Sequence record: OQ378934.1
Length of the DNA: 64,000 nucleotides
Reading direction: 5' to 3' (one strand)
Source of the DNA: Escherichia phage LH2
Shown here: positions 3,303 to 64,000 of the stretch, in pieces
Position numbering within the stretch: the stretch's first letter is position 1
Layout: every line of letters begins with the position of its first letter
The notes under the pieces: model-generated
Databases searched by the model: none
The model's input: only the letters and a program-made list of their open reading frames with translations
Told to the model about the DNA's origin: nothing
Translations under genes and position numbers: made by a program

Positions 3303-3332
3303 GTTTACTTTTCCTCTTGACTGTGGTATAAT
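3303..3332 (+). promoter_or_regulatory. T4-type early promoter (GTTTAC -35, TGGTATAAT -10)
   Basis: gtttac at 3303-3308, tataat at 3327-3332, upstream of regB. Confidence 0.55.
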
Positions 3333-3359
3333 TTTTCTATCAGTTAAGAGGAGAATAAC

Positions 3360-3821
3360 ATGACTATCAACACAGAAGTTTTTATCCGTCGAAATAAGCT
3401 TCGTCGTCACTTTGAGTCGGAGTTTCGTCAAATTAACAATGAGATTCGTGAGGCATCAAAAGCAGCAGGGGTCTCATCGTTTCATCTAAAATATTCTCAG
3501 CATCTTCTTGATCGTGCAATTCAACGGGAGATTGATGAGACATATGTTTTTGAATTATTCCATAAAATAAAAGACCATGTTTTAGAAGTTAATGAATTCC
3601 TGAGTATGCCTCCACGCCCTGATATTGACGAAGATTTTATTGATGGGGTTGAATATCGTCCTGGGCGTTTAGAAATCACAGATGGAAATCTTTGGCTTGG
3701 ATTTACAGTTTGTAAACCTAATGCGAAGTTCAAAGACCCGTCACTTCAGTGCAGGATGGCAATTATCAATAGTCGTCGTTTACCAGGAAAGGCTTCTAAA
3801 GCAGTAATTAAAACTCAATGA
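3360..3821 (+). CDS. regB: Sequence-specific endoribonuclease RegB
   Basis: 153 aa, same length as T4 RegB; MTINTEVFIRRNKLRRHFESEF...; position between denV and tk. Confidence 0.85.
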   Translation: MTINTEVFIRRNKLRRHFESEFRQINNEIREASKAAGVSSFHLKYSQHLLDRAIQREIDETYVFELFHKIKDHVLEVNEFLSMPPRPDIDEDFIDGVEYRPGRLEITDGNLWLGFTVCKPNAKFKDPSLQCRMAIINSRRLPGKASKAVIKTQ

Positions 3822-7947: not shown

Positions 7948-7977
7948 GTTTACAAGCTGGCAAGGTTATGGTATAGT
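7948..7977 (+). promoter_or_regulatory. T4-type early promoter
   Basis: gtttac 7948-7953; tatagt 7972-7977. Confidence 0.5.
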
Positions 7978-8112
7978 AATCTTGTCAACTGCCAAGGAGA
8001 AGAGAATGAAAATTTTGTTTGTTGTGTATGTGATGATTCAATATAATTACCCAATGTTTACTTATAATCTAGTGAACAACATTATTGATATTATTCAAAG
8101 GAGTATGTAATT

Positions 8113-9662: not shown

Positions 9663-10672
9663 TGAAAACAGTAATGAAAAGCTATTTTGGTAGTCATCTT
9701 TATGGAACTTCTACTCCAGAATCTGATGTAGATTTTAAAGAAATCTTTGTTCCTCCTGCTCGTGATATTCTTATCGGAAATGTTAAAGAGCATATGAGTA
9801 AAAACACTAACAACACATCATCTAAAAACACTAAAGATGATATTGACCATGAACTATACAGTCTTAAGTATTTCTTTAAATTAGCAGCAGATGGTGAAAC
9901 CGTAGCATTAGATATGCTTCACACTCCACCTGAACTAGTGGTTAAATCTGATTTACCTGATGTGTGGAAGTTTATTCAAGACAATCGTTCTCGTTTTTAT
10001 ACAACTAACATGAAATCTTATTTAGGATATGTCCGCAAGCAAGCTTCTAAATATGGTGTCAAGGGTTCTCGTTTGGCCGCATTGCGTGATGTATTGAAAG
10101 TAGTTAATCAAATCCCTGAGCAATGGGTTGATTACCAAGAAGACGGTTCCATTAAGCAGCGTCGAACTAAAGTTGAAGATATTAAGCATCGTCTTCCAGA
10201 GAACGAATTCTGTGAATGGGTATTCCATAATCATGAGAAAACAGGCCCACAAACGTTCTACACTGTGTTGGGCCGTAAATATCAGACAACGCTTTCTCTT
10301 ATCGAGCTTAAGCAGTCACTGAACAAATTAGATGCTGAATACGGCGAACGCGCTCGTAAGGCTGAAGCGAATGAGGGCATTGACTGGAAAGCTCTAAGTC
10401 ATGCTTGTCGTGGCGGACTCCAACTATTGGAAATTTACAAAACTGGTGACTTAGTCTATCCACTTCAAGACGCTCCATTTATTCTCGACGTGAAGTTGGG
10501 TAAACATCCATTTAAAACTGTTCAAGAGTTTTTGGAAGATGTGGTCGATCAAGTAGAAGCAGCATCTATTGAAGCTTCTAAGAACGGTATGCAGCAAAAA
10601 GTAGACATGGGTTTCTGGGATGACTTCCTTGAGAGGGTTTATCTTGAAAACCATCGAAGTTATTATAAATGA
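9659..10672 (+). CDS. Nucleotidyltransferase-like protein (Pol-beta superfamily motif)
   Basis: N-terminal GSHLYGTSTPESDVDF matches the GS...DxD nucleotidyltransferase signature; 337 aa. Confidence 0.6.
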   Translation: MMKTVMKSYFGSHLYGTSTPESDVDFKEIFVPPARDILIGNVKEHMSKNTNNTSSKNTKDDIDHELYSLKYFFKLAADGETVALDMLHTPPELVVKSDLPDVWKFIQDNRSRFYTTNMKSYLGYVRKQASKYGVKGSRLAALRDVLKVVNQIPEQWVDYQEDGSIKQRRTKVEDIKHRLPENEFCEWVFHNHEKTGPQTFYTVLGRKYQTTLSLIELKQSLNKLDAEYGERARKAEANEGIDWKALSHACRGGLQLLEIYKTGDLVYPLQDAPFILDVKLGKHPFKTVQEFLEDVVDQVEAASIEASKNGMQQKVDMGFWDDFLERVYLENHRSYYK

Positions 10673-10674
10673 TA

Positions 10675-10699
10675 GGGAGCCTTCGGGCTCCCTTTTTTT
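10675..10699 (+). terminator. Intrinsic terminator
   Basis: gggagc-cttcgg-gctccc followed by ttttttt. Confidence 0.65.
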
Positions 10700-10704
10700 A
10701 TTTC

Positions 10705-10787
10705 AAAAAATTTTCACAAAACAGTTTACAAGCATAAAGCTTTATGGTACTATACAACTATCAACTGATACGGATTTGGAGAATAAA
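10705..10787 (+). repeat. Promoter-leader cassette (PeSL-like), copy A
   Basis: gtttac at 10724-10729 ... tggtactatacaactatcaac ... ttggagaataaaATG; same core as copies at 12163, 37471, 56551. Confidence 0.6.
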
Positions 10788-11756
10788 ATGAAAACTGTAA
10801 CTATCAATAAGGGTATCTACTTCGGTAAAGAAATCTCTGGAACTTTTGAGCTCTTAGGCGAATGGTTCCCAGATAATGCTCCGGTAGATGCACAAGGAGA
10901 TGGTAAAGTTTTTGTTGAAATTGACGGTAAACGTCGCGGTGTTTGGGTTTACAAATCAGATATTTCATATGATGGTGTAAAAGTTGAAGAAGTTAAAGAA
11001 TCGTATGAAGATATGAAAACCCGCATTAACAAAAGATTTAATGTTATGGGAATGATGACGAATGGTATTATTAACGGAAATATTCGTTCATTGATTATCT
11101 CTGGCGCAGCAGGTATTGGTAAAACGTATTCTTTAGATAAAGCTTTAAATAAAGCAAATGATATTGGATACATTGAATATAAAAGCATTAATGGTAAAAT
11201 CTCTGGTATTGGTCTTTATGAACAGCTTTGGAATAATCGTGAAGAGAATTCTGTCCTTTTGATTGATGATGTGGATGTTTTCTCTGATATGGACATTCTT
11301 AATCTTCTAAAAGCCGCTCTGGACACCGGAGAGACCCGTAAAGTCTGCTGGAGCACTGCATCTTCTTACTTAGAAGAAAAAGGCATTGACCGTGAGTTTG
11401 AATTTAAAGGAACGATTGTTTTTATCACAAACGTTGACATTGACCGCGAATTAGACCGTGGTACTAAACTTGCTCCACATTTACAAGCATTAGTGTCCCG
11501 CTCGGTTTATTTAGATTTGGGTGTTCACACTAATGAAGAAATTATGGTCAGGGTTGAAGATGTTATTCTTTCAACTGACATGATGCAAAAGCGTGGTCTT
11601 TCTGATGAAGAAACTTATAAAGCATTATCATGGATGAAAGTTAATGTTAACCGTTTACGCAATGTTTCACTGCGTACTGCTCTTTATCTTGCTGACTTTA
11701 TTATGACCGACAAAAACGGTTGGGAAGAAATTGCTGAGGTTACTCTTCTGAAATAA
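10788..11756 (+). CDS. P-loop ATPase (AAA-like)
   Basis: Walker A GAAGIGKT and Walker B VLLIDDVD; start placed at ATG supplied by the cassette, not the longer track ORF. Confidence 0.65.
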   Translation: MKTVTINKGIYFGKEISGTFELLGEWFPDNAPVDAQGDGKVFVEIDGKRRGVWVYKSDISYDGVKVEEVKESYEDMKTRINKRFNVMGMMTNGIINGNIRSLIISGAAGIGKTYSLDKALNKANDIGYIEYKSINGKISGIGLYEQLWNNREENSVLLIDDVDVFSDMDILNLLKAALDTGETRKVCWSTASSYLEEKGIDREFEFKGTIVFITNVDIDRELDRGTKLAPHLQALVSRSVYLDLGVHTNEEIMVRVEDVILSTDMMQKRGLSDEETYKALSWMKVNVNRLRNVSLRTALYLADFIMTDKNGWEEIAEVTLLK

Positions 11757-11854
11757 TTCATAAGAGGACTTCTATGACAAAAAGGCAGTTCAGAAATAGA
11801 TTATATGGACTGCCATCAAAAAGATGACTAGAATTAAACTGGTGAATGGAGGTA

Positions 11855-12160
11855 ATGATGTTATACTCAAAGGCTCGTGAAATTTACGAAACTAAAATTA
11901 AAGAAGCAGTATTTCAGTTCGCAACGACAATGCGATGGACAAATGACTGGGAGTATTCAAAAAATCATAAGAAGCCCATGGTGACAAGAAAGGCTCATAT
12001 GTTAGTGTTAATAGACCGTGAGCAGATTAAAGCCCGAGAAGCCCTCCAGAATCATAAAAAGGCTGCCTTTGAATGGTTTATGGATAACACTGCTCCTGAG
12101 ACTAAGAAAGCAGTGAGCGCATGGTTCAGTGGAAAAAATTGTGAAAGAAGTTTCTTTTAG
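11855..12160 (+). CDS. Hypothetical protein
   Basis: SD GGAGG then clustered ATGs at 11855/11858; exact start uncertain. Confidence 0.45.
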   Translation: MMLYSKAREIYETKIKEAVFQFATTMRWTNDWEYSKNHKKPMVTRKAHMLVLIDREQIKAREALQNHKKAAFEWFMDNTAPETKKAVSAWFSGKNCERSFF

Positions 12161-12162
12161 TG

Positions 12163-12220
12163 GTTTACAAGACTGTTCCTCTGTGGTACTATACAACTAT
12201 CAACTACGGAGGAACAGAAA
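12163..12220 (+). repeat. Promoter-leader cassette (PeSL-like), copy B
   Basis: 42 nt (gtttacaagactgttcctctgtggtactatacaactatcaac) identical to 37487-37528. Confidence 0.6.
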
Positions 12221-12748
12221 ATGAACGCTAAAGATATTTTCAACTTGGTAAATTACAACGATGGTAAATTTAAATCTGAAGCACAAAGCAAGTTCTTTAA
12301 CGACATCTCAATCGGAGGTGAAATCACGGTTGATGGAGGACAAATTTACAAATCCCGTTGGAATTGGATCGTTATTATCGATGAGATTGGTATTGTAGAA
12401 ATTTACAAAAATACGAATAAAAATCGTACATTACACTGGTCTCGTGATACTAACGAACAGTACAAAAAGGATAAAGCATCTAAATTATCTCGTGTAACTC
12501 AAGAAGATATTGAGTTCATCAAGAAAGATATTTTAATGTATGATAACTTAATTGCTGAAGAGCAAGCTGTTATTGATAAATTTGACGAGATTAAAGCTTC
12601 TCGTGAAATTCCTGATTTTATGAAAGAATCAGTAAATGAACGATACACTCTCATTTCAGAGCGTATTGAAACTTACAAAAAGCAAAGAGCTGAACGCCAA
12701 AATACTCTTCGGAAGTTTGAAGAACGGTTAAAGACGGTACTCGCATAA
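12221..12748 (+). CDS. Hypothetical protein with C-terminal coiled-coil-like region
   Basis: 175-aa ORF following the cassette SD GGAGGA. Confidence 0.55.
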   Translation: MNAKDIFNLVNYNDGKFKSEAQSKFFNDISIGGEITVDGGQIYKSRWNWIVIIDEIGIVEIYKNTNKNRTLHWSRDTNEQYKKDKASKLSRVTQEDIEFIKKDILMYDNLIAEEQAVIDKFDEIKASREIPDFMKESVNERYTLISERIETYKKQRAERQNTLRKFEERLKTVLA

Positions 12749-21249: not shown

Positions 21250-22072
21250 GTATTATATAATTTATAAAATAACAAATATAATTAATTCAAAGGAATATAT
21301 CGGTGCTCATAGCACCGATAATATAAATGATGGTTATATGGGATCAGGAAAATTGATTCATGCTGCTTTATTGAAATATGGCAGAAAAAATTTTTATAAA
21401 GAAATTTTACATGTTTTTGATAATGAAAAACAGATGTATGATAAAGAAGCTGAACTTGTAACTGAAGAGTATTGTCTAAAAGAAAACACATATAATATTA
21501 AACCTGGTGGCAAAGGTGGAACTGCCTATGAACAAACACTTGAACATCGCCGCAAAAATAGTTTAGCAAATAAAGGTAAAAAGAGAACAGCAGAAACTAA
21601 AATAGCTATTTCAAATGCTTTAAAGAACTATAAACGCACACCAGAACATCAAGCAAACATAAATAAAGCTGTAAGAACAGCCATGAAGCGAAAGGATGTT
21701 AGAAGTAAATTAACCGGAGAGCGTTCTGAGAAAGATAAATTATCTATATCAAACGGTGTTAAAAAATATTACAGTTCTTTGAGCGAAGAAGAACGTGAAC
21801 TTCATCGCAAGCGAATTATTGAAGGTAAAAAGAATTCTCCCATGACATTGGAATCCAGACAAAAACTTTCAAAATCTTTAAAAGGACTTCAAGTTGGTTC
21901 AAAAAATCCAATGTATGGAAAAATTTCTCCAACTAGCAAAACCGTTTCAGTTGACGGTATTAAATATGATTCAATTAAAAAATGCTCAAACGCCATAAAA
22001 GTTTCTAGACATCTTATATTAAAACGCTGTAATTCTACTGACGAAGCTTGGAAAAATTGGATATTATTATGA
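21242..22072 (+). CDS. Freestanding GIY-YIG homing endonuclease (Seg-like)
   Basis: YIIYKITNIINSKEYIGAHS...YMGSGKL GIY-YIG module plus NUMOD3 repeats; between nrdD and nrdG. Confidence 0.8.
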   Translation: MHRYYIIYKITNIINSKEYIGAHSTDNINDGYMGSGKLIHAALLKYGRKNFYKEILHVFDNEKQMYDKEAELVTEEYCLKENTYNIKPGGKGGTAYEQTLEHRRKNSLANKGKKRTAETKIAISNALKNYKRTPEHQANINKAVRTAMKRKDVRSKLTGERSEKDKLSISNGVKKYYSSLSEEERELHRKRIIEGKKNSPMTLESRQKLSKSLKGLQVGSKNPMYGKISPTSKTVSVDGIKYDSIKKCSNAIKVSRHLILKRCNSTDEAWKNWILL

Positions 22073-34672: not shown

Positions 34673-37369
34673 ATGAAAGAATTTTATATCTCTATTGAAA
34701 CAGTCGGAAATAGCATTGTTGAACGTTATATTGATGAAAATGGAAAGGAACGTACTCGCGAAGTAGAATATCTTCCGACTATGTTTAGACACTGTAAGGA
34801 AGAATCAAAATACAAAGACATTTACGGTAAAAATTGCGCTCCTCAAAAATTTCCATCAATGAAAGATGCCCGAGATTGGATGAAACGAATGGAAGACATC
34901 GGTCTCGAAGCTCTTGGTATGAACGATTTTAAACTCGCTTATATCAGTGATACATATGGTTCAGAAATTGTTTATGATCGAAAATTTGTTCGTGTAGCTA
35001 ACTGCGACATTGAGGTTACTGGTGATAAATTTCCTGACCCAATGAAAGCAGAATATGAAATTGATGCTATCACTCATTATGATTCAATTGACGACCGTTT
35101 TTACGTCTTTGATTTGTTGAATTCAATGTACGGTTCAGTATCAAAATGGGATGCAAAGTTAGCTGCTAAGCTTGACTGTGAAGGTGGTGATGAAGTTCCT
35201 CAAGAAATTCTTGACCGAGTAATTTATATGCCATTCGATAATGAGCGTGATATGCTCATGGAATATATTAATCTCTGGGAACAGAAACGACCTGCTATTT
35301 TTACTGGTTGGAATATTGAGGGATTTGACGTTCCGTATATCATGAATCGTGTTAAAATGGTTCTCGGTGAACGTAGTATGAAACGTTTCTCTCCAATCGG
35401 TCGAGTAAAATCTAAACTAATTCAAAATATGTACGGTAGCAAAGAAATTTATTCTATTGATGGCGTATCTATTCTTGATTATTTAGATTTGTACAAGAAA
35501 TTCGCATTTACTAATTTGCCATCATTCTCTTTGGAATCAGTTGCTCAACATGAAACCAAAAAAGGTAAATTACCATATGATGGTCCTATTAATAAACTTC
35601 GTGAGACTAATCATCAACGATACATTAGTTATAACATCATTGACGTAGAATCAGTTCAAGCAATTGATAAAATTCGCGGGTTTATTGATCTAGTTTTAAG
35701 TATGTCTTATTACGCTAAAATGCCTTTTTCTGGTGTAATGAGTCCTATTAAAACTTGGGATGCTATTATTTTTAACTCATTGAAAGGTGAACATAAGGTT
35801 ATTCCTCAACAAGGTTCGCACGTTAAACAAAGTTTTCCAGGTGCATTTGTGTTTGAACCTAAACCGATTGCTCGTCGATACATTATGAGTTTTGACTTGA
35901 CGTCTCTGTATCCTAGCATTATTCGTCAGGTTAACATTAGTCCTGAAACTATTCGTGGACAGTTTAAAGTTCATCCAATTCATGAATATATCGCAGGAAC
36001 AGCTCCTAAGCCAAGTGATGAATATTCTTGTTCTCCGAATGGATGGATGTATGATAAGCATCAAGAAGGTATCATTCCAAAGGAAATCGCTAAAGTATTT
36101 TTCCAGCGTAAAGATTGGAAAAAGAAAATGTTCGCTGAAGAAATGAATGCCGAAGCTATTAAAAAGATTATTATGAAAGGTGCAGGGTCTTGTTCAACTA
36201 AACCAGAAGTTGAACGATATGTTAAGTTCAATGATGATTTCTTAAACGAATTATCGAATTACACTGAATCTGTTCTTAATAGTCTGATCGAAGAATGTGA
36301 AAAAGCAGCTACACTTGCTAACACAAATCAGCTGAACCGTAAAATTCTTATTAACAGTCTTTATGGTGCTCTTGGTAATATTCATTTCCGTTACTATGAT
36401 TTGCGAAATGCTACTGCTATCACAATTTTCGGTCAAGTTGGTATTCAGTGGATTGCTCGTAAAATTAATGAATATCTGAATAAAGTATGTGGAACTGATG
36501 GTGAAGATTTCATCGCGGCGGGTGATACTGATTCGGTATATGTTTGTGTAGATAAAGTTATTGAAAAAGTAGGTCTTGACCGCTTTAAAGAACAAAATGA
36601 TTTAGTTGAATTCATGAATCAGTTCGGTAAGAAAAAGATGGAACCTATGATTGATGTTGCATATCGTGAGTTATGTGATTATATGAATAACCGCGAGCAT
36701 CTGATGCATATGGACCGTGAAGCTATTTCTTGCCCTCCACTTGGTTCAAAGGGTGTTGGTGGATTTTGGAAAGCGAAAAAACGTTATGCTCTGAACGTTT
36801 ATGATATGGAAGATAAGCGATTTGCTGAACCACATCTAAAAATCATGGGTATGGAAACTCAGCAGAGTTCAACACCAAAAGCAGTACAAGAAGCTCTCGA
36901 AGAAAGTATTCGTCGTATTCTTCAGGAAGGCGAAGAGTCTGTCCAAGAATACTATAAGAACTTTGAGAAAGAATACCGTCAACTTGACTATAAAGTTATT
37001 GCTGAAGTAAAAACCGCGAACGATATAGCGAAATATGACGATAAAGGTTGGCCAGGGTTTAAATGCCCGTTCCATATTCGTGGTGTACTAACTTATCGTC
37101 GAGCTGTTAGTGGTTTAGGTGTAGCTCCAATTTTGGATGGAAATAAGGTAATGGTTCTTCCATTACGTGAGGGAAATCCATTTGGTGACAAGTGTATTGC
37201 TTGGCCGTCGGGTACGGAACTTCCAAAAGAAATTCGTTCTGATGTACTGTCTTGGATTGACTACTCAACTTTGTTCCAAAAATCGTTTGTTAAACCGCTT
37301 GCGGGCATGTGTGAATCGGCAGGTATGGACTATGAGGAAAAAGCTTCGTTAGACTTCCTGTTTGGCTGA
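34673..37369 (+). CDS. 43: DNA polymerase gp43 (family B)
   Basis: 898 aa; exonuclease motifs (DIEV, YNIIDV) and polymerase motifs (DLTSLYPSI, YGDTDS, KKRY). Confidence 0.95.
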   Translation: MKEFYISIETVGNSIVERYIDENGKERTREVEYLPTMFRHCKEESKYKDIYGKNCAPQKFPSMKDARDWMKRMEDIGLEALGMNDFKLAYISDTYGSEIVYDRKFVRVANCDIEVTGDKFPDPMKAEYEIDAITHYDSIDDRFYVFDLLNSMYGSVSKWDAKLAAKLDCEGGDEVPQEILDRVIYMPFDNERDMLMEYINLWEQKRPAIFTGWNIEGFDVPYIMNRVKMVLGERSMKRFSPIGRVKSKLIQNMYGSKEIYSIDGVSILDYLDLYKKFAFTNLPSFSLESVAQHETKKGKLPYDGPINKLRETNHQRYISYNIIDVESVQAIDKIRGFIDLVLSMSYYAKMPFSGVMSPIKTWDAIIFNSLKGEHKVIPQQGSHVKQSFPGAFVFEPKPIARRYIMSFDLTSLYPSIIRQVNISPETIRGQFKVHPIHEYIAGTAPKPSDEYSCSPNGWMYDKHQEGIIPKEIAKVFFQRKDWKKKMFAEEMNAEAIKKIIMKGAGSCSTKPEVERYVKFNDDFLNELSNYTESVLNSLIEECEKAATLANTNQLNRKILINSLYGALGNIHFRYYDLRNATAITIFGQVGIQWIARKINEYLNKVCGTDGEDFIAAGDTDSVYVCVDKVIEKVGLDRFKEQNDLVEFMNQFGKKKMEPMIDVAYRELCDYMNNREHLMHMDREAISCPPLGSKGVGGFWKAKKRYALNVYDMEDKRFAEPHLKIMGMETQQSSTPKAVQEALEESIRRILQEGEESVQEYYKNFEKEYRQLDYKVIAEVKTANDIAKYDDKGWPGFKCPFHIRGVLTYRRAVSGLGVAPILDGNKVMVLPLREGNPFGDKCIAWPSGTELPKEIRSDVLSWIDYSTLFQKSFVKPLAGMCESAGMDYEEKASLDFLFG

Positions 37370-37382
37370 TAGAATAAATCTA

Positions 37383-37404
37383 GGGACCTCCGGGTCCCCT
37401 TTTC
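37383..37404 (+). terminator. Intrinsic terminator after gene 43
   Basis: gggacc-tccg-ggtccc then cttttc. Confidence 0.55.
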
Positions 37405-37470: not shown

Positions 37471-37550
37471 AATTTTTCACAAAGCTGTTTACAAGACTGT
37501 TCCTCTGTGGTACTATACAACTATCAACCAATACAAATTTGGAGAATGAA
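37471..37550 (+). repeat. Promoter-leader cassette (PeSL-like), copy C
   Basis: Contains the 42-nt block identical to 12163-12204 and the ttggagaatgaaATG leader. Confidence 0.6.
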
Positions 37551-37931
37551 ATGAAAATCGCTATTTTGGTTATTGCATTGGGTCTTACTGGTTGTGTAGC
37601 TCAAGGACCGGTAGTAAATCAGTCTGATGTAGGAAAAATTGTAAACTGTTCAAGCAAATTTTATAATCCTAACGTCAAGTGTTATAAAGAAGTTCCAAAA
37701 CAGACAGTAGAACAAATGCAGGCGAATTTTGACGAAGCTATTCGTCCAGATGAATCTGCACAAGCATATCGTAATTCAGATGTGATTACGCGTGAAGAAA
37801 AAATTGAAAACTACTGTGCTGAACTTTGGGCAAATTGGGCTAATAATTACCAATGGCGTACTGGTAAAAATGCTCCGATGGAGTATGTAGTAAATTCTTA
37901 TAATTCATGTGTAAAAAATTTGACTAAGTGA
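37551..37931 (+). CDS. Lipoprotein
   Basis: MKIAILVIALGLTGC lipobox; start supplied by the cassette. Confidence 0.6.
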   Translation: MKIAILVIALGLTGCVAQGPVVNQSDVGKIVNCSSKFYNPNVKCYKEVPKQTVEQMQANFDEAIRPDESAQAYRNSDVITREEKIENYCAELWANWANNYQWRTGKNAPMEYVVNSYNSCVKNLTK

Positions 37932-37938
37932 GGAAAAC

Positions 37939-38190
37939 ATGGAAACTTTAGTAGCAGGTTCAATTTTTATGGTTTTAGTTTCAGGCGTGTTGGCTATTAT
38001 TATATACATGCTTCCATGGTTTATCGCCTTGATGCGCGGGTCAAAATCGACAGTAGGAATCTTTTTCACATCTTTACTGTTTAACTGGTCAATTATTGGT
38101 TGGTTTATTACATTTATTTGGTCAATTGCGGGTGAAACTAAAAAATCCGCACAACCAAATCAAGTAATTATCATCAGAGAGAAGGAATGA
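37939..38190 (+). CDS. imm: Immunity (superinfection exclusion) membrane protein Imm
   Basis: 83 aa, two TM segments; between 43 and 42 as in T4. Confidence 0.8.
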   Translation: METLVAGSIFMVLVSGVLAIIIYMLPWFIALMRGSKSTVGIFFTSLLFNWSIIGWFITFIWSIAGETKKSAQPNQVIIIREKE

Positions 38191-38343: not shown

Positions 38344-39084
38344 ATGATTAATGACTCTATGACAGTTGAAGAAATCCGTCTTCATTTGGGAATTGCATTA
38401 AAGGAAAAAGATTTCGTAGTTGATAAAACTGGTGTTAAAACTATTGAAATTATTGGTGCATCATTTGTAGCAGATGAACCTTTTATTTTTGGCGCTCTTA
38501 ATGACGAATACATTCAGCGTGAACTTGAATGGTATAAATCTAAAAGTTTGTTTGTTAAAGATATTCCGGGTGAAACACCGAAGATTTGGCAGCAGGTAGC
38601 ATCTTCTAAAGGCGAAATTAACTCGAATTATGGTTGGGCCATCTGGTCGGAAGATAACTATGCTCAGTATGACATGTGTTTAGCTGAACTTGGTCAAAAT
38701 CCTGATTCTCGACGTGGTATCATGATTTATACTCGTCCATCCATGCAGTTTGACTACAATAAAGATGGCATGTCAGATTTCATGTGTACGAATACAGTGC
38801 AGTACCTGATTCGTGATAAGAAAGTCAATGCAGTGGTTAACATGAGAAGCAATGATTGCTGGGCAGGCTATCGTAATGATTATGCATGGCAAAAATACGT
38901 ATTAGATAAATTAGTATCTGATTTGAATGCAGGCGATTCAACTCGTCAGTATAAAGCAGGTTCTATTATATGGAATGTTGGAAGTCTTCATGTATATTCT
39001 CGTCATTTTTACTTGGTTGATCATTGGTGGAATACTGGCGAAACTCATATTATGAAAAAAGATTATAACGGTGAGTGGAAATGA
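38344..39084 (+). CDS. 42: dCMP hydroxymethylase gp42
   Basis: 246 aa; thymidylate-synthase-like fold motifs; close match to T4 gp42 as recalled. Confidence 0.92.
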   Translation: MINDSMTVEEIRLHLGIALKEKDFVVDKTGVKTIEIIGASFVADEPFIFGALNDEYIQRELEWYKSKSLFVKDIPGETPKIWQQVASSKGEINSNYGWAIWSEDNYAQYDMCLAELGQNPDSRRGIMIYTRPSMQFDYNKDGMSDFMCTNTVQYLIRDKKVNAVVNMRSNDCWAGYRNDYAWQKYVLDKLVSDLNAGDSTRQYKAGSIIWNVGSLHVYSRHFYLVDHWWNTGETHIMKKDYNGEWK

Positions 39085-39927: not shown

Positions 39928-40593
39928 ATGAAAAGACATAAAGAAAAGAAATATAATTATACTTATGTTATAACTAATTTAGTTAATAATAAAATTTACT
40001 ATGGAACTCATTCAACCGATGATTTAAATGATGGTTATATGGGATCAGGAACTTTATTAGCACAAGCCAAGAAAAAGTATGGTAAGAAAAATTTTAATTT
40101 AAGCATTCTTGGGTTTTATAAAGATTTTAAATCAGCCCGTGATGCTGAAAGAGAATTAGTAACAATAGATGTGGTAAATGATCCTATGACTTATAATTTA
40201 AAAATTGGTGGAGAGGGTGGTAGAAGAATTGGTTATAGAGTTTCATCAGAAACCAAAGAAAAAATTTCAAAAGCTCAAAAAGGAAAACCAAAACATCTTG
40301 GATTTAGTGATGTTTGCCGGAAAGCCCAGCTAGGCAAAAAGCAGTCAGAAGAAACTAAAGCAAAACGAAAAGAAGCTTTGCTTAATAATCCATATGGTTA
40401 TAATAGAAATAAACCATCACATAAACGTGACCCAATAATGTGGGATAACATTGAAAAGATTAAAGAAATATGGGAAAACTCTGGAAAACCCGGTGCTATT
40501 AAGCTTAAAAAATTAGCAATTGAAGCTGGATTTCCAAATAAATCTTATGCAAGAATGCTCGAAGTATTTCGTGGAACAAGAACACTACTATAA
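39928..40593 (+). CDS. Freestanding GIY-YIG homing endonuclease (Seg-like)
   Basis: YVITNLVNNKIYYGTHS...YMGSGTLL; paralog of the 21242 ORF; NUMOD3-like repeats. Confidence 0.75.
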   Translation: MKRHKEKKYNYTYVITNLVNNKIYYGTHSTDDLNDGYMGSGTLLAQAKKKYGKKNFNLSILGFYKDFKSARDAERELVTIDVVNDPMTYNLKIGGEGGRRIGYRVSSETKEKISKAQKGKPKHLGFSDVCRKAQLGKKQSEETKAKRKEALLNNPYGYNRNKPSHKRDPIMWDNIEKIKEIWENSGKPGAIKLKKLAIEAGFPNKSYARMLEVFRGTRTLL

Positions 40594-42123: not shown

Positions 42124-43551
42124 GTGGTAGAAATTATTCTTTCTCATCTCATATTTGATCAAGCTTATTTTTCAAAAGTTTGGCCATATATGGATTCAGA
42201 ATATTTTGAAAGTGGTCCAGCTAAAAATACATTCAAATTAATTAAATCTCATGTCAATGAGTACCATAGCGTTCCATCTATTAATGCGTTAAATGTTGCG
42301 TTAGAAAATAGTTCATTTACTGAAACAGAATATTCTGGTGTAAAAACACTTATTTCGAAACTAACCGATTCTCCAGAAGACCACAGCTGGTTAGTAAAAG
42401 AAACAGAAAAATATGTTCAGCAAAGGGCGATGTTTAATGCTACGTCTAAAATAATTGAAATTCAAACTAATGCTGAGCTTCCTCCGGAAAAACGAAATAA
42501 GAAAATGCCAGATGTAGGTGCTATTCCTGACATCATGCGCCAAGCATTATCAATTTCATTTGATAGTTACGTTGGTCATGATTGGATGGATGACTACGAA
42601 GCACGTTGGCTATCTTATATGAATAAAGCTCGTAAGGTTCCATTTAAACTCAAAATTCTAAATAAAATTACTAAAGGCGGAGCTGAAACTGGAACACTGA
42701 ACGTTTTAATGGCTGGTGTTAACGTCGGTAAGTCATTAGGTCTGTGTTCATTGGCAGCAGATTATTTGCAGCTCGGACATAATGTTCTTTACATTTCCAT
42801 GGAAATGGCTGAAGAAGTTTGTGCTAAACGTATTGACGCTAATATGCTTGATGTTTCTCTTGATGACATTGATGATGGGCATATTTCTTACGCTGAATAT
42901 AAAGGAAAAATGGAAAAATGGCGTGAGAAATCTACTCTTGGTCGTTTAATCGTTAAACAGTATCCTACTGGTGGAGCAGATGCTAACACATTCAGGTCTC
43001 TCTTGAATGAATTGAAGCTCAAGAAGAATTTTGTTCCAACAATCATTATTGTCGACTATCTAGGTATTTGTAAATCTTGCCGCATTAGAGTTTATTCAGA
43101 AAATAGTTACACAACTGTTAAAGCTATTGCAGAAGAATTGCGTGCTCTGGCTGTTGAAACCGAAACTGTTCTTTGGACTGCAGCACAGGTTGGTAAACAA
43201 GCTTGGGATTCTTCTGATGTTAACATGAGTGATATCGCAGAATCTGCCGGTCTTCCAGCAACAGCTGATTTTATGCTTGCGGTCATTGAAACCGAGGAGC
43301 TAGCAGCTGCTGAACAACAACTCATTAAGCAAATCAAATCACGATATGGTGATAAGAATAAATGGAATAAGTTTTTGATGGGTGTTCAAAAAGGAAATCA
43401 GAAATGGGTAGAAATTGAACAAGATTCTACTCCAACTGAAGTGAACGAAGTAGCAGGTTCACAACAGATTCAGGCTGAACAGAATCGCTATCAAAGAAAT
43501 GAATCTACTCGAGCCCAGTTAGATGCTTTGGCAAATGAATTAAAATTTTAG
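42124..43551 (+). CDS. 41: Replicative DNA helicase gp41 (DnaB-like)
   Basis: 475 aa; GTG start after SD AAGGAG; Walker A GVNVGKS. Confidence 0.92.
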   Translation: MVEIILSHLIFDQAYFSKVWPYMDSEYFESGPAKNTFKLIKSHVNEYHSVPSINALNVALENSSFTETEYSGVKTLISKLTDSPEDHSWLVKETEKYVQQRAMFNATSKIIEIQTNAELPPEKRNKKMPDVGAIPDIMRQALSISFDSYVGHDWMDDYEARWLSYMNKARKVPFKLKILNKITKGGAETGTLNVLMAGVNVGKSLGLCSLAADYLQLGHNVLYISMEMAEEVCAKRIDANMLDVSLDDIDDGHISYAEYKGKMEKWREKSTLGRLIVKQYPTGGADANTFRSLLNELKLKKNFVPTIIIVDYLGICKSCRIRVYSENSYTTVKAIAEELRALAVETETVLWTAAQVGKQAWDSSDVNMSDIAESAGLPATADFMLAVIETEELAAAEQQLIKQIKSRYGDKNKWNKFLMGVQKGNQKWVEIEQDSTPTEVNEVAGSQQIQAEQNRYQRNESTRAQLDALANELKF

Positions 43552-43580
43552 TTTACAAGCTGACAAGACTATGGTATAGT
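43551..43580 (+). promoter_or_regulatory. T4-type early promoter with palindromic -10 region
   Basis: gtttac 43551-43556; tatagt 43575-43580 inside acaagact...agtcttgt inverted repeat. Confidence 0.5.
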
Positions 43581-43609
43581 AGTCTTGTTGGTTAAATGAG
43601 GAGATCGTT

Positions 43610-43792
43610 ATGGAATTGGTAAAGGTAGTTTTTATGGGGTGGTTTAAGAATGAAAGCATGTTTACTAAAGAAATCACAATGATGAAAGATGACGTTCAAT
43701 GGGCTACTACTCAATATGCTGAAGTTAATAAAGCATTAGTTAAAGCTTTCATTGATGACAAGAAAGTATGTGAAGTGGATTGCCGAGGATAA
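43610..43792 (+). CDS. dmd: Dmd-like antitoxin (inhibitor of host RnlA/LsoA RNase toxins)
   Basis: 60 aa; MELVKVVFMGWFKNESMFTKEITMMKDDVQW... as recalled for T4 Dmd; immediately downstream of 41. Confidence 0.6.
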   Translation: MELVKVVFMGWFKNESMFTKEITMMKDDVQWATTQYAEVNKALVKAFIDDKKVCEVDCRG

Positions 43793-49883: not shown

Positions 49884-49913
49884 GTTTACTTTCCTTTCTA
49901 ACGATGATATGAT
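49884..49913 (+). promoter_or_regulatory. T4-type early promoter
   Basis: gtttac 49884-49889; tatgat 49908-49913. Confidence 0.45.
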
Positions 49914-49939
49914 AGCTTCTGAAGTATATGGAGGCTATC

Positions 49940-50563
49940 ATGATTATTAATCCTGCAGATGTTGAACAGTTATCTATAAAAGCTGAAAGTGTCGATTTTC
50001 AATATGATATGTATAAAAAGGTCTGTGAAAAATTTACTGACTTTGAACAGTCAGTTCTTTGGCAATGTATGGAAGCCAAAAAGAATGAAGCTCTTCATCA
50101 GCAGTTGAATAAAATCGTTAAAAAGCATTTAACTGAATCACCTTATCAGTTATATCGTGGTATATCAAAATCGACAAAAGAACTCATTAAAGATTTACAA
50201 GTCGGAGAAGTGTTTTCAACGAACAGAGTAGATTCATTTACTACTAGTTTGCACACAGCATGTGGTTTTTCTTATGTTGAATATTCCACTGAAATAGTAC
50301 TTCGCTTAAAAACTGATAAAGCTTTTAATTACTCTGACCATATCAGCGATATTATACTTTCTTCTCCTAATACTGAATTTAAGTATACATATGAAGATAC
50401 TGATGGATTAGATTCAGAACGTACTGATAACTTAATGATGATTGTACGTGAACAAGAATGGATGATTCCAATTGGAAAGTATAAAATAACTTCTATTTCA
50501 AAAGAAAAATTACACGATTCATTTGGAACATTTAAAGTGTATGATATTGAGGTAGTTGAATGA
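49940..50563 (+). CDS. modB: ADP-ribosyltransferase ModB-like
   Basis: 207 aa from ATG after SD GGAGG; R...STS...E arrangement (YRG, FSTN, EQEWMIP); assignment by length and position. Confidence 0.55.
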   Translation: MIINPADVEQLSIKAESVDFQYDMYKKVCEKFTDFEQSVLWQCMEAKKNEALHQQLNKIVKKHLTESPYQLYRGISKSTKELIKDLQVGEVFSTNRVDSFTTSLHTACGFSYVEYSTEIVLRLKTDKAFNYSDHISDIILSSPNTEFKYTYEDTDGLDSERTDNLMMIVREQEWMIPIGKYKITSISKEKLHDSFGTFKVYDIEVVE

Positions 50564-54849: not shown

Positions 54850-54879
54850 GTTTACTTCCTCGGTTAGTTGTGGTATTAT
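54850..54879 (+). promoter_or_regulatory. T4-type early promoter
   Basis: gtttac 54850-54855; tattat 54874-54879. Confidence 0.5.
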
Positions 54880-54906
54880 AACACCATAGCTACTGAGGAT
54901 AATAAA

Positions 54907-55407
54907 ATGAAAATTTATCGTGTTGAATCATCTTTTAGTATTCTTAATTATGAAGATGCTATAACAATACGTCGAAATCTTTGTGTTCAAATAACGCCGT
55001 ACAGGAGTATAATAGATTCATGGAGCGAAGAGTGGCTATTACACGTAGGTTATGACAGACCTAATTTTATGCATCATAGTGATAATAATAAAAGAATTCC
55101 TTTACCACACGAAGATAAACTATTAGTTAAAAACGCTAATATAGTAATTAATACTAAGTTCAAGAAAGATTATGTTGGAGTAGAATATCATATTCCAGGA
55201 TGGTTTATAGCTCTTTATCATTTTGCTTTCGCTAGTGAATATGATATGATGAGATGGTTCACACGAGAAGAGCGGGAAGAATTATCTTCTAAAGGATTTT
55301 ATCTCGCTGTATACGAAGTTCCTGAAGATGAAGTTATCATTGGCGGGCACCAAGTAATGTTCCGCAAATCGCATGCTGAACTCGTAGATTTTATTGAAAT
55401 GAGATAA
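54907..55407 (+). CDS. Hypothetical protein (MotB-region gene)
   Basis: ATG 54907 downstream of the promoter; 166 aa. Confidence 0.5.
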   Translation: MKIYRVESSFSILNYEDAITIRRNLCVQITPYRSIIDSWSEEWLLHVGYDRPNFMHHSDNNKRIPLPHEDKLLVKNANIVINTKFKKDYVGVEYHIPGWFIALYHFAFASEYDMMRWFTREEREELSSKGFYLAVYEVPEDEVIIGGHQVMFRKSHAELVDFIEMR

Positions 55408-63515: not shown

Positions 63516-63526
63516 TAAGGAAAATT

Positions 63527-64000
63527 ATGTACAATATTAAATGCCTGACCAAAAACGAACAAGCTGAAATTGTCAAACTGTATTCAAGTGGTAATTACAC
63601 CCAACAGGAATTGGCTGATTGGCAAGGTGTATCGGTTGACACAATCCGTCGTGTTTTGAAAAATGCTGAAGAAGCTGAACGCTCTAAAGTTACCATTAGC
63701 GGTGACATTACAGTTACAGTTAATAGCGATGCAGTTATTGCTCCAGTTGCTAAATCTGACATTATTTGGAATGCATCTAAAAAATTCATTTCAATTACTG
63801 TTGACGGCGTAACTTATAACGCAACTCCTAATACTCATTCAAACTTCCAGGAAATTCTTAATCTGCTTGTAGCGGATAAGTTGGAAGAAGCGGCACAAAA
63901 AATTAACGTTCGTCGCGCTGTTGAAAAATATATTTCCGGTGATGTTCGAATTGAAGGTGGAAGCTTGTTCTATCAAAATATTGAATTACGGTCTGGTTTA
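63527..64000 (+). CDS. rIIB: Rapid-lysis protein rIIB (5' partial, runs off window)
   Basis: MYNIKCLTKNEQAEIVKLYSSGNYTQQELADWQGVSVDTIRRVL...; open to the window end. Confidence 0.85.
   Translation, partial: MYNIKCLTKNEQAEIVKLYSSGNYTQQELADWQGVSVDTIRRVLKNAEEAERSKVTISGDITVTVNSDAVIAPVAKSDIIWNASKKFISITVDGVTYNATPNTHSNFQEILNLLVADKLEEAAQKINVRRAVEKYISGDVRIEGGSLFYQNIELRSGL

Follow-up and report, generated by a model that had tools for sequence, protein, structure and literature searches.

An identical 42-nt early promoter core at two loci of a T4-like phage, probably explained by exchange between promoter cassettes, and its RNA hairpin partner at one of them

Why should two sites of one phage genome, 25 kb apart, be identical over 42 nucleotides? 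The window analyzed here, which means the whole 64,000-nt stretch of Escherichia phage LH2 (sequence record OQ378934.1), comes from a T4-like phage (Tequatrovirus), and its + strand corresponds to the T4 minus strand. An exact-match search of the window found the 42-mer GTTTACAAGACTGTTCCTCTGTGGTACTATACAACTATCAAC exactly twice, at 12163-12204 (site A) and 37487-37528 (site B), both on the + strand, so the repeat noticed in an earlier sequence-only reading is real. No third copy with three or fewer mismatches was present elsewhere in the window, and the nearest other site, 10724-10765 (site C), had 8 mismatches, every one of them in the promoter spacer. The 42-mer was matched 0 times in 100 dinucleotide-preserving shuffles and the number expected by chance was 0, so a chance origin of the identity was rejected. 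The exact identity ended sharply, with not one further base shared on either side, and the 60-nt flanks of A and B agreed at 20/60 positions on the left and 15/60 on the right, which is chance level. Around site A, phages such as SA20RB and ime09 match the window at 98-99% identity; around site B, several phages reach about 97%.

The repeat is a promoter core that reaches from -36 to +6, as the sequence-only reading had also seen. Both copies contain GTTTAC with the -35 hexamer TTTACA, a 17-bp spacer, TGG as the TGn element and the -10 hexamer TACTAT, which is the signature of T4 early promoters (Pe). The T4 early consensus has GTTTAC at -36 to -31 and an 'uber' promoter layout of UP, -35, TGn and -10 elements (PMC1524935, PMC2988021), and the information content of the consensus is higher in T4 early promoters than in promoters of the host (PMC2988021). 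The core of the nrdC.8 promoter (site A, 12163-12204, + strand) has its -35 hexamer at 12164-12169, TGG at 12184-12186 and the -10 hexamer at 12187-12192, and the core of the imm.1 promoter (site B, 37487-37528, + strand) has the corresponding hexamers at 37488-37493 and 37511-37516. Transcription would start at about 12199 and 37523, if it begins 7 nt past the -10 hexamer. The UP-like region of B (about -40 to -60), cattaaaaaatttttcacaaagct, is about 79% A+T and includes an A6T5 tract. The UP-element region of A is about 71% A+T, but it falls within the coding end of nrdC.9 (ORF 11846-12160, + strand), whose stop codon TAG (12158-12160) leaves only 2 nt to the start of the 42-mer. Both sites lie on the same strand, just 5' of the Shine-Dalgarno sequence (SD) and ATG of an early-region gene, in the T4-orthologous position. 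T4-like early promoters are annotated in SA20RB at the orthologues of sites A and C, and an early promoter is predicted in fPS-2 at the orthologue of site B. As judged from these features, A and B are sigma-70 promoters of the T4 early type, which host RNA polymerase would read straight after infection.

The genes around the two sites are unrelated. Promoter A would drive nrdC.8 (175 aa, 12221-12748, + strand). Upstream of site B lies the DNA polymerase gene 43 (34673-37369), followed by a stem-loop terminator (37383-37398, + strand) that is 88 nt upstream of promoter B, and downstream lie imm.1 (126 aa, 37551-37931, + strand), imm (37939-38190) and gene 42 (38344-39084). Site C (10724-10765, + strand) is the early promoter of nrdC.10 (10788-11756) and also has a terminator upstream (10674-10693); between P(nrdC.10) and site A no convincing terminator was found. 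An Rfam search matched L20_leader at 10545-10706, over the end of nrdC.11 and this terminator, with 28.9 bits against a gathering threshold of 58.7 (E = 0.006), which is most likely a chance match, and permissive E-values around site A gave sub-threshold chance matches only. The window also contains a 45-nt direct repeat (21306-21350 and 40007-40051, 89% identical, ending in ...AATGATGGTTATATGGGATCAGGAA), apparently a conserved coding motif of two paralogous, possibly homing-endonuclease-like genes.

A pattern search of the window returned 16 T4-type early promoters, each with a 17-bp spacer and each on the + strand. Compared pairwise, they agreed at a median of 22/42 positions over the whole frame and at 5/14 in the spacer, and after A and B (42/42) the best pairs among the 16 reached 34/42. 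This bears out the earlier remark that the promoter consensus alone does not require identity of the spacer. Site C shares with A and B the -35 hexamer and the 21-nt block TGGTACTATACAACTATCAAC, and differs from them in the spacer. The promoters of nrdC.8, imm.1 and nrdC.10 probably form one paralogous sub-family of promoter cassettes. The spacer of site C (10733-10746) is itself a perfect 14-nt palindrome, CATAAAGCTTTATG, conserved in T4, T2, SA20RB and IMG/VR contigs. Two other pairs of early promoters, 15121-15150/61069-61098 and 7948-7985/43551-43588, agree at 13/14 spacer positions and 34/42 overall, and in the second pair a palindrome surrounds the -10 box, as in ACAAGACTATGGTATAGTCTTGT at 43557-43579. 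Such further near-identical pairs suggest that promoter sub-families are a general feature.

To see how old the identity is, one has to look at the alleles of both loci in relatives, of which we compared 15 B alleles and 12 A alleles out of about 540 Tequatrovirus genomes. Promoters were present at both loci in every relative examined. In T4, one base (T12C) separates the orthologue of A from the window 42-mer and 3 bases separate that of B, and the two T4 sites agree with each other at 38/42 positions. The -35 hexamer and positions 22-42 were essentially invariant among the 15 B alleles (diversity about 0) and invariant at locus A in the 12 genomes. At B the variation was concentrated in the spacer: pairwise diversity was 0.26 at spacer positions 7-21, compared with 0.064 in the left 230 nt and 0.144 in the adjacent 60 nt, and at least 9 different spacers are in use at this locus. 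Phages with nearly identical flanks could have quite different spacers. T2 and PST differ at 4/230 flank positions and 6/18 spacer positions (p = 1e-5), and PYps55T and the fetched locus L004 at 3/231 and 3/18 (p = 0.006). Two spacer patches, AAGA/ATCC and CTTCCA/CCTCTG, occurred at B in all four combinations. This pattern fits short-patch exchange better than it fits clock-like divergence, although no donor of the alternative 'ATCC' patch (GTTTACATCC) was found among the fetched loci.

Of about 540 Tequatrovirus records, roughly 50 have the exact A-type 42-mer at locus B, where it is flanked by at least four different sequence backgrounds. The window and BYEP01 share one of them (99.4% identical over 161 nt), ESh36 (1 record) has another, and the PYps55T type (19 records) a third. 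The T2 type makes up the fourth, with up to 31 records that carry an extra ORF; the 42-mer was read in T2 only, and the other extra-ORF records presumably carry it as well. In BYEP01 the B site equals the window 42-mer and the phage's own A copy has T14C, and in T2 position 12 is T at B and C in its own A copy. The resident A is thus one base off B in both phages, which suggests that the B allele spreads as a B allele and was not freshly converted in them.

These distributions bear directly on how recent the event was. The sequence-only reading had proposed recent duplication or gene conversion between two cassettes. Recent segmental duplication was rejected, since the flanks have no homology, relatives have promoters at both loci and the T4 pair already matches at 38/42; what the two loci have in common is only the core from -36 to +6, and not a cassette with its flanks or flanking genes. 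If, on the other hand, the resident A had overwritten the B spacer in the immediate lineage of this phage, a perfect 42/42 match would be expected, and the private substitutions that border the 42-mer in the B allele (AAAGCT on the left, CAATACAAA on the right) do give it the look of an island of identity. T4-type phages recombine intensively, which also counts for such a recent conversion. However, the same allele in BYEP01 next to an A copy with T14C, the T12/C difference within T2-type phages and the occurrence of the exact 42-mer at B in about 50 records with at least four backgrounds all argue against it, and we regard it as improbable. The claim of recency is therefore not supported, and the part of the earlier proposal that survives is exchange between cassettes. 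B might instead be an old copy of an A-type promoter that simply stayed unmutated in this lineage, with no later exchange. In the network of B alleles the A-type one does sit at the center, 2 steps from Sfk20, 3 from T4 and 5-6 from others, and 38/42 positions are still shared in T4, so the A-type allele could be the ancestral state at B that was retained in some lineages. Old paralogy as the only cause is nevertheless rather unlikely, because the spacer is the most variable part of B (0.26 against 0.064) and yet occurs in exact A-type form on several flank haplotypes, pairs with near-identical flanks differ by 3-6 clustered spacer bases, the two patches are found in all four combinations, and in T2 an entire A-type cassette occupies locus B.

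In principle, the same 42 bases could have arisen twice under selection for the best possible strong early promoter, and the high consensus information of T4 early promoters (PMC2988021) as well as the invariance of the -35 hexamer and positions 22-42 at both loci would agree with that. The spacer speaks strongly against such convergence: the other 14 early promoters match A/B and each other at only about 5/14 spacer positions, and relatives use at least 9 different spacers at B, so independent origin is very improbable. An assembly or transcription error is hardly credible, because the exact match was confirmed by computed search, the same sequences are present at both loci in many independently sequenced phages, and a 42-nt repeat is shorter than a sequencing read. 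We therefore consider it likely that A and B are early promoters of one cassette family and owe their identity to cassette exchange, and not to a recent duplication in this genome.

The surroundings of the core indicate how such an exchange might have run. In the upstream region, the 5'UTR and the first codons, site C resembles B (82% over 93 nt). From this comparison B is a mosaic across the genus, in which C-like flanks and a C-like 5'UTR surround an A-type core. The B core would have descended from an A-type cassette when promoter cassettes exchanged homologous sequence, in the manner of PeSL (promoter-early stem-loop) cassettes or of gene conversion, and the A-type allele at B would then have spread among phages. 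We infer both the direction and the timing of this exchange. Since a crossover joining A to B would remove 25 kb with genes 43, 45, 44, 62, 46, 47 and 55, the phage should survive only non-crossover exchange.

A hint at the direction came from RNA structure. The RNA fold of 12150-12235 gave a 15-bp stem with an MFE of -30.2 kcal/mol (z = -5.75), and 0/200 shuffles were as stable. Its 5' arm CUGUUCCUCUGUGGU (12173-12187, + strand) is the promoter spacer plus TGn, the 15-nt loop (12188-12202, + strand) holds the -10 box and the predicted start site, and the 3' arm ACUACGGAGGAACAG (12203-12217, + strand) lies in the 5'UTR and contains the nrdC.8 SD, GGAGG, at 12208-12212. The 42-mer at A is thus the left part of a 61-nt unit that runs from the promoter to the ATG. 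An inverted-repeat finder detected the same two arms independently, with 87% complementarity as DNA. The two mismatched positions become G·U pairs once the sense strand is read as RNA, a hint that the structure exists at the RNA level, in the sense direction. The T4 orthologue of site A forms a 13-bp stem (z = -5.6). At site B no hairpin was found (z = +1.15), since the 3' arm is absent there and the 5'UTR reads CAATACAAATTTGGAGAATGAAATG, and in 13 other B alleles with B-type UTRs the pairing between spacer and SD was weak (-4 to -9 kcal/mol), with no comparable hairpin. The spacer is therefore 'explained' by pairing only in the A-type cassette and is an orphan arm at B, which suggests that an A-type cassette was the source of the promoter module at B. 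The sequence-only reading was right about the promoter, and the spacer of site A as half of an RNA hairpin was absent from it.

The hairpin itself varies among relatives. The variants T12C, T14C, ACAG/ACAC and GGATG (T2) among the 12 A alleles each weaken the stem, and no compensatory covariation was found in these 12 alleles within Tequatrovirus. Diversity of the A spacer was 0.046 (12 genomes), no lower than in its slowly evolving surroundings, so constraint on the hairpin is not demonstrated by it. Across genera, Dhakavirus JS10 keeps the spacer-SD pairing with different sequences, weakly (z = -1.9), and in Mosigvirus HX01 a hairpin forms with the SD excluded from it. An IMG/VR scan with a degenerate 42-mer pattern returned only 4 T4-like contigs, which is too few for statistics.

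The A-type cassette was also found in front of other genes. With its hairpin, the full cassette precedes three different genes, namely nrdC.8, an 83-aa ORF in T2 and a membrane ORF in IMG/VR. At locus B of T2, the A-type 42-mer is followed by the A-type 5'UTR TACGGAGGAACACAAAATG, hairpin included (z = -4.5), and the extra 83-aa ORF is inserted between the promoter and imm.1 (1646-1897 of fetched locus L012); homology between T2 and the window stops precisely at the last base of the 42-mer, 37528. The extra ORF is present at locus B in 31 Tequatrovirus records. A homologue, 54% identical, lies at the rI.-1/mobD.3 locus of Dhakavirus IME08 (L015, 1162-1422), where a terminator of its own and a related early promoter precede it. 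The third A-type cassette is on the minus strand of IMG/VR contig 2974742932_000001 (L011, about 2560-2700 in reverse-complement coordinates), in front of a small 37-aa membrane ORF (MKKIIKAIWNVV...), about 2 kb past the stretch that is homologous to the window's right end (63516-63997); outside the window, its source genome may have one more copy of the cassette. ESh36, PYps55T and F1 (L018, L019 and L024, about 350-560) have an ORF of about 78 aa, beginning MKI..., after promoter B instead of the 126-aa imm.1, so the gene behind promoter B is replaceable. The sequence-only reading had raised the comparison of flanking genes among related phages, and behind B they do differ, being imm.1, the ORF of about 78 aa or the extra 83-aa ORF of T2. 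In this sense the promoter core is a portable module, and homology between phages breaks off at its edges (-36 to +6). It has been reported that PeSL mobile regulatory cassettes mediate shuffling in T4-type phages, the T4/PST pair included (PMC2839356, PMC4122927).

What the hairpin could do at site A follows from its geometry, with the predicted start at about 12199 in the loop and the 5' arm upstream of it. Transcripts that come from P(nrdC.10) upstream would contain both arms, and the ribosome-binding site (RBS) of nrdC.8 and the GGAG target of RegB would be hidden in the hairpin. Transcripts from promoter A would begin in the loop and lack the 5' arm, which would leave the RBS free and the message translatable. 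Such translational gating of nrdC.8 is our reading of the fold and of predicted start sites. In T4, the intergenic GGAG of nrdC.8 is cut by RegB in vivo only 'moderately', and RNA structure protects GGAG from RegB (PMC1702504). This moderate cutting would be compatible with a pool in which some transcripts are structured and others are not.

Hairpins around early promoters were not limited to site A. In the window, 7/16 early promoters had a hairpin with z < -2.4 between the spacer and the start codon (values from -2.5 to -7), compared with 6.3% of random 60-nt windows (n = 300), which gave a binomial p of 3e-5. These promoters are at 689-760, 3303-3375, 7948-8010, 12163-12223, 43551-43615, 49884-49945 and 54850-54915, with the spacer as the 5' arm, and in 5/7 (those at 689, 3303, 12163, 49884 and 54850) the 3' arm covers the SD or the start codon. 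It is conceivable, though we lean against it, that hairpin-embedded early promoters are a general and portable control module of T-even phages. With the promoter's own spacer as the anti-SD strand, translation of a gene, and its exposure to RegB, would be confined to transcripts of its own early promoter and denied to read-through transcripts. The imm.1 copy would then be decayed or chimeric, with the promoter half only. No description of an early promoter inside an SD-sequestering hairpin was found in the part of the literature that was searched, so this aspect is possibly unreported. Should such gating exist and be general, it would carry the logic of T4 lysozyme, soc and I-TevI over from late-only to early-only expression, and it would account for the incomplete RegB cleavage of some early GGAG sites.

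Compared with known systems, A and B belong to kinds already described, namely T4 early promoters and PeSL-like cassettes. They resemble P(nrdC.8) and P(imm.1) of T4 in GTTTAC, the 17-bp spacer, TGn, TAnnnT, the A/T-rich upstream region and the loci themselves, and nothing essential differs except that the cores match at 42/42 in this phage and at 38/42 in T4. Targets of the endoribonuclease RegB are resembled by nrdC.8 in having GGAG in the SD of an early mRNA, cut moderately in T4 (PMC1702504), and the difference is that the proposed link between the hairpin and partial cleavage is ours and absent from that paper. In the RBS-sequestering hairpins of T4 e, soc, 49 and I-TevI, an internal late promoter (TATAAATA) allows late-only translation (PMC3014915). 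Site A is alike in that the SD lies in a stable helix and that, from geometry only, a transcript of the proximal promoter would lack the 5' strand; it differs in that its internal promoter is an early sigma-70 promoter whose own spacer is the 5' strand. By this analogy the element at A may work like the e/soc/49/I-TevI family, outside the described set. PeSL units each combine a terminator, an early promoter, an SD and an ATG, and their near-identical copies are scattered over junctions where close relatives differ in gene content (Arbiol 2010, PMC2839356; Comeau 2014, PMC4122927). Site B is such a full composite with a varying downstream gene, the A-type cassette precedes three genes, and the stem-loop upstream of the promoter is present at B (37383-37398) and C (10674-10693). 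Site A differs, because it has no upstream stem-loop and abuts the nrdC.9 stop, and its own stem-loop encloses the -10 box and the start. The mosaic structure and the clustered differences at B fit exchange between such copies. That near-identical early promoter cassettes act as recombination junctions in T4-type genomes is already published; what this pair adds is a clean case in which a promoter spacer also serves as one strand of an RNA hairpin, and in which an 'orphan arm' indicates which way an exchange went.
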